64,000 nt of DNA from Dictyostelium discoideum (taxonomy: Eukaryota): assembly GCA_000004695.1 (NCBI GenBank), contig CM000152.2, forward strand, positions 3,968,001-4,032,000. The letters run 5' to 3'. The translations under genes were made by a program, and so were the position numbers. Shown here in pieces: positions 27,611-31,200 of the stretch; the first letter of the stretch is position 1, and the number at the start of each line of letters is the position of its first letter. Under the pieces are notes generated by a model. That model saw only the letters and a program-made list of their open reading frames with translations. It was not told where the DNA came from and searched no databases.

Positions 27611-28786
27611 AATAATACCCCCTTTACCATTTTCTTATTTTGAATATTTTCCAGATTTGGAAATTTTTTTATGGCCATTGGATTTTACTACAAATAGTAA
27701 AAATCCCTTTTTTAATTTCAAAAAATTGAAAAATGATCGAGTATAAATTGAAAAAAAAAAAAAATAATCATTTATACAAATGTAAAAAAAAAAATAACAA
27801 ATAGAAAATAAATCTAACTCTAACAATTAAAAATGGTTCAGATAAAGTTGGCTGATAGTATAAAATATAAAAAAAAAAAAAGGGAATTACTTTAAAAAAA
27901 AATATATAACAATTTAAATCTAACTTTAATATTCTTTTTTATAAAGTAATTTTATCAAATAAAAATGGTTTCCATCAATAATGACCTAGATAATATAATA
28001 TATGAATCAATACCAATCAAATGATAGAGAAAGGAAAGATTTATCTATGCACTATATCATAAAGAATCATCATATTAATATTATTTCTAAACAAATAAAA
28101 TGAATCAATTCAAATCAAATGTCAGAGAAAGGAAAGATTTATCTATGCACTATGGCATTTTGAAAAGAAGATGATATCATTTATAAATAAATAATTAGAA
28201 ATCAAAAAACTAAAAATAAATTAAAAACTAAAAATAAATATTAAAAGGTTTAATAAAATATTTTTTTTTTCATTATTGTTTAAAATATTAATTTAATTTA
28301 TTTAAAAAAACTATTTCTTTTTAATTCTATTATTAATAAAAAATTAAAATTATTCAAATGGTTGGTTTTTATGTTTTTCAAAATAAAATTAAAATTGTAA
28401 GTTGGTAATTATTATTTTTAGGTTAAAAATTAAAATTAATTGAAATGGGGGTATTGTTATATATGATGGGTTTAGTTTTTATTTATTTCATAAATTATTT
28501 AATAATTTAATAAAAAATTGTGTGATGTGGTATATCTGAATAAAAACAAATTTGTTTATCAATTAGAAATTTCAATTTTATATAATTTTATCCGTTTTTG
28601 TATAATCTGTCAAAAATGAATATTACAAAATAAATAAAATAACATAACAAAGTATTTTGTTTTATTTGAATTTTGTGGTAACCTTTTAGACTTTGTTATT
28701 TGTAAAAAATTGGTTAATTTACAAATAAGAATAATAAGAATAATTAAAAAAAAAAAAAAAATAATAAAAAAAGTGATTTGATTTAA
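27611..28786 (+). repeat. Non-coding repeat family, copy 1 (about 1.2 kb, full length)
   Basis: Starts ..AATAATACCCCCTTTACCATTTTCTTATTTTGAATAT and ends in an A-run followed by GATTTGATTTAA. Contains an internal about 110-bp tandem duplication with the core AGAGAAAGGAAAGATTTATCTATGCACTAT, present twice. About 85% identical to copy 2 (30002..31200). Confidence 0.6.
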
Positions 28787-28912
28787 TATTCTTAAAAAAA
28801 AAAAAAAGTATAAATTAAAAGTTTTTTTTTTTTTATTATTCATTATACCAATTATTTATAATACAAAATACAAAATAAATCAAATCAAATCAAATCAAAA
28901 TAAAATAAAAAA

Positions 28913-29278
28913 ATGACACTCTTTTGTAAGTATTTAAAAAATTTTATTTACCTTTTTTTTTTAAAAAAAAATAATTTAAAAACTCATTAAATTAATAAAT
29001 TATTAGCATCGATCTCATCATTGTCAAGTTCAATGACAAGTTCAAGATCTATTTTCGCTTCATTTGGTAGTGGAACAATTATGGGTTCAAATTCTATTTC
29101 ATGTACTGTCGGTAGTGGTAGTTGTGGTAGTGGTAGTGGAGGTTGTGGTGATTTAACTGGTGGAGCTAAATCAAGTGGTGGTAGTTGTGGAGGAAAAGGT
29201 GGATCACACAATCATGGCCATGGTCATGGACCACATGGTCAAGGTGGTAAAGGTTCAGGAGGTTCATGTAGTTGTTAA
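28913..29278 (+). CDS. Small Gly/Ser/Cys-rich protein of the hssA/2C/7E-like family. Exons 28913..28925 and 29007..29278. About 94 aa.
   Basis: A 13-nt first exon ATGACACTCTTTT, donor GTAAGT at 28926, acceptor TATTAG at 29005-06 (phase 1). Product: [82 protein letters not shown]. The MTLFSSISS start and the Gly/Ser/Cys body are typical of this Dictyostelium family. Confidence 0.6.
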
Positions 29279-29610
29279 TATTTACACATATATATATTTT
29301 AAATATTACTTCAATTGTAATAATAAATTATTTAAAATAAAAATCGCACCTATTTTAATTTTATTTAAAAATAATTTATTTTTATTTTTATAGTAAATTT
29401 AAAAAAAGGACTATTTCGCACCATTAAATCTTTTGTTTATTTGTGAATATTAAATTATTTTAATCCTGTTTTAAATAATTATTAACCTCTGCCTTTACTT
29501 CAATCCTTTCACCAGTAGTACTCTAAAGATTTACAACGGAATTTGCACCTTGATACCGAAAATTTTTTTTTTTTTTTTTTATTTATTAATTCATTTGTTG
29601 ATTATTTATT

Positions 29611-29706
29611 TATTTATTTATTTATTTATTTATTTATTTATTTATTTATTTATTTATTTATTTATTTATTTATTTATTTATTTATTTATTTATTTATTTA
29701 TTTATT
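29611..29706. repeat. (ATTT)n tetranucleotide microsatellite, about 24 units
   Basis: tatttatttatttattt... read directly. Confidence 0.85.
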
Positions 29707-30001
29707 AATTTTTCAAAATTTAAAAAAAAAAAAAAAAAAAAAAACTTTTTCATTTTAAAATAATAAAAATATAAAATAAATTTTGAATTTTTTTTATTTG
29801 TTATTTTTATTATTATTTCTCAATCAAATAATTAAAAAAAAAAAAAAAATACTCTTTAAATTAATAATTATTAATAAAAAAAGAATTTTTTTTTCCCACA
29901 ATCAAACATGTTTGAACTATAATTTTTTTTTTTAACAATAAATCTTAAAATAAAAATAAAGTTTTAGTGCTTTTCTAAAGAAATAGATATCTTTTTATTG
30001 T

Positions 30002-31200
30002 AATAACACCCCTTTTACCATTTTCTTATTTTGGATATTTCCAGATTTGGAAATTTTCTTTTTGGCTATTGGATTTTACTTAAAATAGTAAATTATTTTT
30101 TTTAATTTCAAATAATTTAAAAAATTGAAAAATGATCGAGTATAAATAGAAAGTTTTTTGAAAAAAAAAAAAATAATAACCATTTATACAAATGTAAAAA
30201 AAAAAATAACAAATAGAAAATAAATGTAACTCTAACAATTAAAAAGGTTTAGATAATAGTTGATTGATAGTTTAAAATATAAAAAAAAGGTAAAGCCATA
30301 AAAAAAAAAAATAATAAATAACAATTTAAATCTAACTTTAATTATATATATATATATTATAGAGTAATTTTATCAAATAAAAATGGAAAAAATTCAATTA
30401 TAATCAAGATAATATAATTTATGAATCAATACCAATCAAATGATAGAGAAAGGAAAGATTTATCTATGCACTATATCATAATGAAAGGTTGATCATCATA
30501 TTAATATTTATTCTTACCTTATAAAATGAATCAATTCAAATCAAATGTCAGAGAAAGGAAAGATTTATCTATGCACTATGGCATTTTGAAAAGAAGATTA
30601 TATCATTTATAAATAAATAATTAGAGATCAAAAAACTAAAAATAAATTAAAAAACTAAAAATAAAATTAAAAGGTTTAATAAAATATGTTTTTTTTTCAT
30701 TATTGTCTAAATTATCAATTAAATTAATTTAAAAAAACCATTTCTTTTTAATTCTATTATTAATAAAAAATTAAAATTATACAAATCGTTTATTTTTATG
30801 TTTTTCAAAATAAGTTGGTCATTTTTTATTATTTTTGGGTTAATTGAAATGGATGTATTGTTATATATTCGATGGGTTTATTTTTTATTATTTCATTACC
30901 ACCATAAATTATTTTAATTATTTAATAATTAATAAAAAATTGTAAAATGTGGTATGTCTAAATAAAAACTAATTTTTTTATCAATTAGAAATTTCAATTT
31001 TATGTATTTTTATCCGTTTTTGTATAAACTGTCAAAAACGAATATTTACAAAATATATAAAATAACAAAACCAAGTATTTTGTCGTTTGAATTTTGTGGT
31101 ACCTTTTTGACTTTGCCTTTTTTAAAAAATTGGTTAATTTACAATAAGAAAAATTAAAAAAAAAAAAAAAAAAAAAAAAAAAAAAAAGGATTTGATTTAA
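30002..31200 (+). repeat. Non-coding repeat family, copy 2 (about 1.2 kb, direct orientation relative to copy 1)
   Basis: AATAACACCCCTTTTACCATTTTCTTATTTTGGATAT... collinear with copy 1, including both copies of the AGAGAAAGGAAAGATTTATCTATGCACTAT core. Ends ...A(n)GGATTTGATTTAA. Confidence 0.6.

Follow-up and report, generated by a model that had tools for sequence, protein, structure and literature searches.

A Recently Inserted Noncoding Repeat with a Conserved Double Stem-Loop Module in Dictyostelium discoideum, a Candidate Retroposed RNA Element

Introduction

Retroposons typically carry a 3' poly(A) tail that abuts a target-site duplication of 7–25 bp. In Dictyostelium discoideum, TRE5 elements insert ~48 bp upstream and TRE3 elements ~100 bp downstream of tRNA genes, and we know of no independent element resembling a short interspersed nuclear element (SINE) in the catalogue of this species. 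Its noncoding transcripts include the class I RNAs, with an 11-nt motif (CCTTACAGCAA) and the upstream element DUSE ([AT]CCCA[CT]AA), and dutA, a developmentally regulated, untranslated, AU-rich RNA that is a multicopy suppressor of STATa and is reportedly ~1322 nt long, with 83% A+U and no open reading frame (ORF) above ~126 nt. The mobile-element catalogue (Glockner et al. 2001), as far as it is relayed in PMC5633606, lists TRE, DIRS, Skipper, DGLT, DDT, Tdd, and thug; TRE5-A.2 and TRE5-A.3 are deletion derivatives mobilized in trans by TRE5-A.1 (PMC5633606), and dutA is a very abundant RNA (PMC12750705). Here, we analyzed a stretch of 64,000 nt of D. discoideum chromosome 3 (GenBank assembly GCA_000004695.1, contig CM000152.2, positions 3,968,001–4,032,000 of the forward strand; hereafter, the window), which contains a ~1.25-kb AT-rich noncoding repeat, termed R, in the copies R1, R2, and R3.

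Materials and Methods

The region orthologous to the window was taken from eight other assemblies, with neighboring proteins as anchors; the ORF at 33320–33787 of the window is exactly DDB_G0281065. Seven of these assemblies lack the repeat at the orthologous sites, namely, two of D. citrinum, one of D. dimigraforme, one of D. firmibasis, two of D. cf. discoideum, and that of D. discoideum strain ACTFIW. The loci are designated L001 (GCA_054883475.1), L005 and L006 (D. firmibasis), L008 (D. cf. discoideum), and L013 (ACTFIW). Copies of the repeat were compared by MAFFT, BLAST, and nhmmer, and its stem-loop modules were searched for with a covariance model over 316 kb. Segment X denotes the DNA between R1 and the target-motif copy t'. 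Coordinates refer to the window unless a locus is named.

Results

Structure of the Repeat Copies

The three copies and a box that they have in common are as follows.

27552–28786, forward strand: repeat copy R1, 1235 nt, 83.6% A+T, preceded by T15AT7 (27529–27551) and ending in ...A16TAATA7GTGATTTGATTTAA.
29934–31200, forward strand: repeat copy R2, 1267 nt, 83.3% A+T, preceded by T11 (29923–29933) and ending in ...A33GGATTTGATTTAA.
43985–44872, reverse strand: repeat copy R3, 888 nt, adjoining a 39-nt homopolymer run (44873–44911).
27741–27750, forward strand: GTATAAAT(A/T)G box followed by a T/A-run, at the equivalent place in R2 (30140–30149, forward strand) and R3 (44685–44694, reverse strand).

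As described in an earlier note on this DNA, two of the copies are direct and collinear and the third is partial and inverted; all three comparison methods recovered them, and the matches lay far above chance (nhmmer E=0). The limits had to be moved: homology begins ~60 nt further 5' than had been stated, right after the T-run (27552 and 29934), and the third copy, which had been placed at 44101..44828 and said to cover the first ~750 bp, spans ~890 bp from 43985 to 44872. R3 has an A+T content of 85% and is the counterpart of the first ~830 nt of R1 and R2 in the orientation of the earlier note, and R2 confronts the 3' end of a convergent WD40 gene (from 31282). Pairwise identity, first given as ~85%, was 87–88% when gaps were excluded; it was ~82% in the 5' part (MAFFT alignment) and reached 91–98% across the second module, described below, and the next 250 nt. 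The similarity among the copies was mosaic (compared over 27552–28400, 29934–30810, and 43985–44872), with R2 and R3 closest in the first ~300 nt (85–93%) and R1 and R3 closest in the center (94–98%, with 97% over 28205–28320), a pattern that suggests gene conversion or different source copies.

No ORF was kept in frame or length between the copies, whose longest ATG-initiated ORFs measured 117, 156, and 108 nt, in line with the noncoding character assigned at the outset. Small ORFs in the cores (MNQ[YF][QK]SN[DV]RERKDLSMHY) were rejected as protein-coding, the frame being broken in R3 and a stop being present in D. firmibasis. Neither long hairpins nor terminal inverted repeats were found in the copies; the latter had already been reported as lacking.

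Lineage-Specific Insertions

The gap between the Methyltransf_16 and WD40 genes measured 119–200 bp in the seven assemblies without the repeat and 3.8 kb in the window and GCA_054883475.1, with R1, an hssA-like gene, and R2 inside. Similarly, the spacer upstream of the FNIP-repeat gene spanned 366–602 bp without R versus 1251 bp with R3 in the window, and a profile search for R in the orthologous loci of the repeat-free assemblies returned nothing at these sites. Intergenic identity to the window was 84–90% for ACTFIW and 75–85% for the D. cf. discoideum assemblies. Because the sites are empty in these lineages, the insertions can be no older than the ACTFIW and D. cf. discoideum splits, despite the 12–13% divergence between R copies. 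These results demonstrated that R1, R2, and R3 are recent, lineage-specific insertions that are polymorphic between D. discoideum strains.

Other differences between lineages were observed in the same region. In L013 (13972–14574), the spacer upstream of the FNIP-repeat gene has a ~400-bp GC-richer segment after T27; the window lacks this segment, and D. cf. discoideum has a shorter one. Thus, this site was struck by different insertions or deletions in different lineages. L008 has a 2.7-kb gene-free gap (15680–18364) before the orthologue of the 3-phosphoglycerate dehydrogenase gene (serA; a spliced gene at ~39.7–41.4 kb of the window), compared with ~0.8–1.0 kb elsewhere. This gap is a putative lineage-specific insertion, in which the R profile had no match.

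Duplicated Target Motif at the First Site

The earlier note had found no flanking duplications. A 23-nt direct repeat, with a further copy inside, was nevertheless present around the block formed by R1, the hssA-like gene, and R2.

27511–27533, no strand assigned: target-site duplication copy t, T9ATCAAACAAT5, left of R1.
28787–29885, forward strand: segment X, between R1 and t', with an hssA/2C/7E-like mini-gene, its own promoter, and a (TTTA)n array.
29886–29908, no strand assigned: target-motif copy t', T9CCCACAATCAAACATG, between the hssA-like segment and R2.
31209–31231, no strand assigned: target-site duplication copy t'', T9CATTAAACGAT5, right of R2.

The copies t and t'' matched at 20 of 23 positions (empirical p ~0.002), and only 0.16% of random AT-rich windows matched as well. 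The motif consists of a T-run followed by ATCAAACA, and the pattern T{8,}N{0,8}AT[CT]AAAC[AG] had no occurrence in the 64 kb, on either strand, other than the three at t, t', and t'', so that the order is t–R1–X–t'–R2–t''. In the empty sites (L013, L007, and L008), the ancestral motif (a T-run and then AAACAC or AAACAG) is single; in the window it flanks the block left and right. When aligned with the empty sites, the window places the first insertion between 27519–27538 and 31209–31232, and the ancestral intergenic DNA picks up again at 31232, after t''. Over their whole length, the ~90 nt that precede R2 were not significantly similar to the DNA that precedes R1 (p = 0.09), and homology of these flanks was rejected; only the T9...ATCAAACA motif was significant.

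Tails, Common End, and Truncation on the Reverse Strand

When the copies were read as the reverse complement, homology between them stopped exactly at homopolymer runs of 23 (R1), 11 (R2), and 39 nt (R3). On this strand, R1 ends in ...ATTTATTGGT followed by A7TA15, R2 in ...ATTTATTGTT followed by A11, and R3 in ...AATAAAATTTATTATT followed by A39. The tail follows a common AATAAA at a distance of 29 nt in R1 and 10 nt in R3, and the copies end within 25 nt of one another downstream of this one signal. Target copy t directly adjoins the R1 tail, 14 nt lie between the R2 tail and t', and no clear duplication accompanies the R3 tail. At the opposite end, R1 and R2 have one common reverse-strand 5' terminus, TTAAATCAAATC, and R3 lacks the first ~400 nt, being 5'-truncated. 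The reverse-strand start of R1 lies 7 nt after TTTATAC plus T15, the layout of a typical Dictyostelium core promoter, which stands back-to-back with the hssA-like gene. Tails, AATAAA, truncation, and a common 5' end are hallmarks of target-primed reverse transcription, and the ~20-bp duplication fits this mode of insertion. With lineage-specific insertions, target duplications, homopolymer tails, and one truncated copy, the previous judgment that R is "not obviously a transposon" is not supported.

Conserved Double Stem-Loop Module

Each copy carries a pair of 71-nt stem-loop modules with the core AGAGAAAGGAAAGATTTATCTATGCACTAT.

27998–28166, forward strand: R1 double module (27998–28068 and 28096–28166).
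30417–30592, forward strand: R2 double module (30417–30487 and 30522–30592).
44197–44368, reverse strand: R3 double module (44298–44368 and 44197–44266), the second core with a 1-nt deletion.

The 30-nt core had five exact occurrences versus zero expected, and the sixth core (44213–44244, reverse strand) carries the deletion. A tandem pair of cores is found in every copy, as the earlier note had described, with a spacing of 98, 105, and 101 nt rather than about 110 bp. A 6-bp stem closes a 37-nt loop in the module (stems ATGATA/TATCAT, ATGTCA/TGGCAT, ATGCCA/TGGCAT, and GTGTCA/TGACAT) and pairs in all eight modules, including two from D. firmibasis (48/48 cells), with two positions altered on both sides. 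None of 500 shuffles reached the covariation score of this stem, which was picked post hoc among ~4 independent sequences, and slid registers paired in 17–46%. The folding energy of the modules was ordinary (z = -0.3 and -1.7).

The second species in which the module was found is D. firmibasis, where tRNA-Ala and the methyltransferase ATG are 1565 bp apart, compared with 243–269 bp in all other assemblies. The extra ~1.3 kb (L005, roughly 5175–6560) is lineage-specific and contains a stretch (6046–6267) collinear with both R modules (nhmmer E ~2e-16), in which GTCAGAGAAAGGAAAGATTTATCTATGCACT is identical at 31/31 nt. These modules lie ~420 bp upstream of the methyltransferase ATG at a nearby, nonorthologous site, within 2 kb of the orthologous place, and nothing recognizable of the remainder of R was found in the D. 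firmibasis insertion beyond the ~220-bp double module. The covariance model over 316 kb detected only the six modules of the window and the two of D. firmibasis. A lack of both expression and conservation beyond the locus had been named beforehand as an observation that would reduce R to a local duplication; the conserved core in D. firmibasis speaks to the contrary. As judged from these comparisons, the double module is the only part of R under long-term constraint across species, and the R family is older than the insertions in the window because the module occurs in D. firmibasis at a nonorthologous site.

No Rfam 15 family matched R, the two tRNA-Ala genes being the only matches in the window, and a relaxed Rfam search of R1 and the D. 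firmibasis insertion gave only chance-level results (E >= 1.9). The core had zero matches in a text search of 8 million papers and zero in exact-pattern scans of metagenomes and prokaryote genomes. As candidate identities, a miRNA (microRNA) precursor was rejected, no long conserved hairpin being found, as was a small nucleolar RNA (snoRNA) or class I RNA, whose defining motifs were absent and for which no Rfam match was obtained. Taken together, the double module is a candidate functional RNA or protein-binding module that is possibly new.

Segment X and the hssA-like Gene

The hssA-like gene in segment X is intact, with an ATG at 28914, a canonical GTAAGT...TAG intron (28927–29006), and a stop at 29276–29278, and encodes a 94-aa protein (MTLFSSISS...). 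Its core promoter, TATA plus T13, lies at 28808–28840, outside R. Segment X is also absent from related genomes. No entry for the protein was found in a collection of 15 billion proteins, in which its best relative was HssA/B-like protein 64 (66% identity), and GCA_054883475.1 has no gene call at this locus. A (TTTA)n microsatellite of ~29 units followed by an A23 run occupies 29590–29705 within the segment. The (GATTT)2 terminus of R1 (28776–28785) and an (AAATC)4 sequence in the 5' leader of the hssA-like gene (28877–28896) form an inverted pair ~90 nt apart, which flanks the TATA region common to R1 and the gene. A companion role of R for hssA-family genes in general was rejected, no R being found near the D. 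firmibasis hssA-like gene (locus L006).

Neighboring tRNA Genes and a TRE3-like Element

The following features surround the repeat copies.

25886–25958, reverse strand, and 46778–46850, forward strand: tRNA-Ala(AGC) genes, with identical ARAGORN and Rfam results.
46895–50122: 5'-truncated TRE3-like non-LTR (non-long terminal repeat) element, ~45 bp downstream of the tRNA-Ala(AGC) gene at 46778–46850 (forward strand).

The tRNA-Ala genes form an inverted pair whose flanking arms are 98% complementary. An R copy lies 1.6–1.9 kb upstream of each, directly after the 3' end of the first protein gene, with its end at 27552 or 44872 toward the tRNA-Ala gene; the homologous modules of D. firmibasis are also upstream of this tRNA-Ala, at ~1 kb. 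The placement may reflect tRNA-linked targeting or coincidence.

The TRE3-like element has an ORF (47353–50001) with an RVT_1 domain, ends in ...TTTATTTATATC plus A20 at 50122, and is flanked by an 11–13-bp duplication, AGTGTTCAATT (46878–46888 and 50131–50141). With its A20 tail and duplication, it served as a local control for target-primed insertion. In L005, a GC-richer stretch downstream of tRNA-Ala (4300–4990) contains an ORF (4470–4637, reverse strand) that by eye resembles the C-terminus of the TRE3 ORF2 of the window (...HQ[VI]WI..C[EK]SLF); the stretch probably represents a remnant of TRE3 at this tRNA gene. In L013, a retrotransposon-type ORF (18037–20061) with retroviral aspartyl protease and gag-asp_protease domains lies near the tRNA region; the corresponding area of the window holds the TRE3-like element.

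Discussion

A Possible Retroposed Noncoding RNA

We propose that R is an uncatalogued, non-autonomous, retroposed noncoding RNA element of D. discoideum with its sense on the reverse strand, a reading to which we assign a probability of roughly 0.4. A ~1.25-kb polyadenylated, AU-rich noncoding RNA, made from the strand opposite to that of the earlier note, would have been copied back into the genome; it would begin at UUAAAUCAAAUC (28786 and 31200, leftwards), carry AAUAAA near its end, and finish in a poly(A) tail. The enzyme may have been a resident reverse transcriptase of the long interspersed nuclear element (LINE) type, that is, of TRE, which would have used T/A-runs a short distance downstream of genes for target-primed reverse transcription. 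R2 would have landed first, between the methyltransferase and WD40 genes, doubling the target motif; R1 would have followed at the same motif, bringing along an upstream source flank with the hssA-like gene and the common TATA region, by which the third motif copy would have arisen; and R3 would be a third, 5'-truncated copy whose arrival upstream of the FNIP-repeat gene removed part of the target DNA. In this view, the tandem stem-loop pair would be the functional module, as RNA or as DNA, and would be needed for stability, protein binding, or mobilization.

Several observations weigh against this reading. At the junctions, the R2 tail lies 14 nt from t' and the R2 5' end 8 nt from t'', and R3 has no clean target duplication, 200–420 bp of ancestral spacer having been replaced. 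T-runs already exist in the empty sites (T12–T36 at the first and T27 at the second); therefore, the tails may be partly or wholly ancestral. With regard to the strand, four of the eight stems use G:U pairs, which become A.C on the reverse strand, A exceeds T on the forward strand of R, and the forward-strand, TATA-type GTATAAAT(A/T)G box with its T/A-run is kept in all copies; the pairs, the skew, and the box weakly favor the forward strand as the RNA strand. A reverse-strand RNA would also have a U33 run near its 5' end. No similarity was found between R and the 3' end of the window's TRE3 copy, and a developmental survey of long noncoding RNAs (lncRNAs) called none in chr3 3.91–4.19 Mb (PMC5295588 File S4), an interval that should include the R locus by the coordinates of GCA_054883475.1. 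Finally, all R copies lie within one neighborhood of ~20 kb, and the 316 kb searched contain no further module; hence, local copying fits as well as mobility.

Comparison with Known Elements and Noncoding RNAs

R resembles non-autonomous non-LTR retroposons, including SINE-like elements, in that it has no coding capacity, a homopolymer tail at one end, a ~20-bp target duplication, a common defined 5' end, one 5'-truncated copy, insertion at T/A-runs, and presence/absence polymorphism between strains. It departs from them in that its tails are not cleanly against duplications at every junction. No RNA polymerase III promoter is possible in R because of the long T-runs inside the element. R has no reverse-transcriptase ORF, and, unlike TRE elements, R1 and R3 lie 1594 and 1906 bp from the two tRNA-Ala genes, each time with a protein gene between; the D. 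firmibasis insertion, whose ends are approximate, starts roughly 60–100 bp upstream of tRNA-Ala. Local alignment scores between R and the TRE3-like copy (46895–50122) were within the shuffled range, and the idea that R is a TRE3 module was rejected on this comparison.

The direct repeats R1 and R2 around a 1.1-kb segment, with a direct duplication flanking the whole block, recall an LTR or composite element. However, the interior holds only the hssA-like mini-gene (94 aa) and no gag/pol, the repeats have diverged by 13%, the termini are ACCAAT...GATTTGATTTAA rather than TG...CA, the duplication is ~20 bp and not 4–6 bp, and a third target motif lies between the repeats. R also differs from DNA transposons and miniature inverted-repeat transposable elements (DDT, Tdd, and thug) in having no terminal inverted repeats. 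Short conserved modules with a terminal stem closing a conserved loop and an AT-rich spacer are reminiscent of the small noncoding RNA genes of Dictyostelium; however, the class I motif and DUSE patterns given above were not found in or beside any R copy, nor were consistent C/D boxes as in box C/D snoRNAs or a long miRNA-type hairpin as in primary miRNA transcripts. On present evidence, R is a noncoding inserted repeat or retroposon of known kind, and its module is possibly new.

Alternative Explanations

The alternative that survived best, which we still consider rather doubtful, is copying at the DNA level. R would be a forward-strand lncRNA gene, equipped with a promoter (T-run, and TATA plus T-run) and A-rich at its 3' end, that entered a staggered break in a single event. 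The 23-bp repeats on either side would then have undergone unequal exchange, which duplicated R and captured an hssA-like fragment at the junction. Template-switch repair of a second break, 14 kb away, would have copied part of R there in inverted orientation, and the stem-loops would be the functional part of the RNA. The t–R–t–R–t order is the expected product of unequal exchange between flanking repeats. Target DNA was deleted at R3, the copies are confined to 17 kb, and the module of D. firmibasis is close to the orthologous place; the confinement of the module in the 316 kb searched, the mosaic similarity suggestive of gene conversion (R2–R3 in the 5' part and R1–R3 in the center), and the forward-strand indications from G:U pairs, A>T skew, and the conserved TATA box fit this explanation as well. 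However, it would require two independent events (R1/R2 and R3) with nearly one left end, at a homopolymer and downstream of one reverse-strand AATAAA, unlike random breakpoints. In addition, a 20-bp target duplication is unusual in break repair, a source copy elsewhere is still required because six lineages have clean empty sites, segment X demands an extra event, and the survey in PMC5295588 called no lncRNA at the locus.

Less probable still is that R is dutA, or a paralogue or retro-copy of it, a lead that came from what is said of the size and composition of this RNA. R and dutA are alike in length (~1.25–1.3 kb), A+U content (~83%), and the lack of a significant ORF, with R1 and R2 measuring 1235 and 1267 nt plus tail, 83.3–83.6% A+T, and longest ORFs of 117 and 156 nt, against values for dutA that are those reportedly given. 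Abundant RNAs are the most prone to retro-copying, and prior annotation, if such were the case, would explain the absence of R from a list of novel lncRNAs. Nevertheless, this likeness is common in AT-rich Dictyostelium noncoding DNA. R occurs in three copies and is absent at these sites from one D. discoideum strain and the sister species; the lack of the block in ACTFIW and all sister species would be odd for a developmental gene unless the true gene lies elsewhere.

We regard as very unlikely that R is a cis-regulatory (promoter or enhancer) module shared by the hssA-like and FNIP-repeat genes, with the cores as transcription-factor sites, a role that had been raised when the repeat was first noticed. 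Both R1 and R3 are followed by a gene that has their orientation, the D. firmibasis modules lie upstream of the methyltransferase gene, and the core, conserved 31/31 between species, contains a GATA-type site (TTATCT). However, downstream of R2 there is no gene that it could drive, the core promoter of the hssA-like gene lies outside R, the FNIP-repeat gene has a proximal promoter of its own and is intact, with its proximal 220 bp retained, in the seven assemblies without R3, and the hssA-like gene of D. firmibasis has no R nearby; compensatory changes in the 6-bp stem are also not expected of a factor-binding site. Of the two functions suggested for the conserved island, the small structured RNA or functional module is the one that the island and its stem fit, and the promoter role is the one that the gene arrangement argues against. 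A plain neutral segmental duplication, with neither function nor mobility, is highly improbable: the copies are local and their 5' part is about as divergent as neutral intergenic DNA (75–90% identity between lineages), but the double module is kept in D. firmibasis at a different site with unalignable surroundings, its stem covaries, the center of the repeat is 91–98% identical, and insertions occurred at two separate sites, one with target duplications.

Implications for Dictyostelid Genomes

Returning to retroposition, a speculative extension, which we hold with considerable doubt, is that R represents a dictyostelid SINE-like "retro-lncRNA" family, in which an RNA polymerase II noncoding transcript is copied by the TRE reverse transcriptase, has been active recently, and can carry neighboring genes such as those of the hssA family; the modules would then be a new structured RNA motif for the retrotransposition machinery or for a host function. 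If R should prove to be dutA or a catalogued repeat, the finding would be of smaller value, and the youth and strain-specific absence of the copies would still be useful to users of these loci and strains. The double stem-loop is in itself a concrete and directly testable candidate for a new functional RNA or protein-binding module. If the retroposed element is real, a noncoding element with long target duplications would be a new player in a very compact genome; being polymorphic between strains, it would have moved an hssA/2C/7E developmental gene to a new place, and would thereby provide a way for small developmental gene families to spread.

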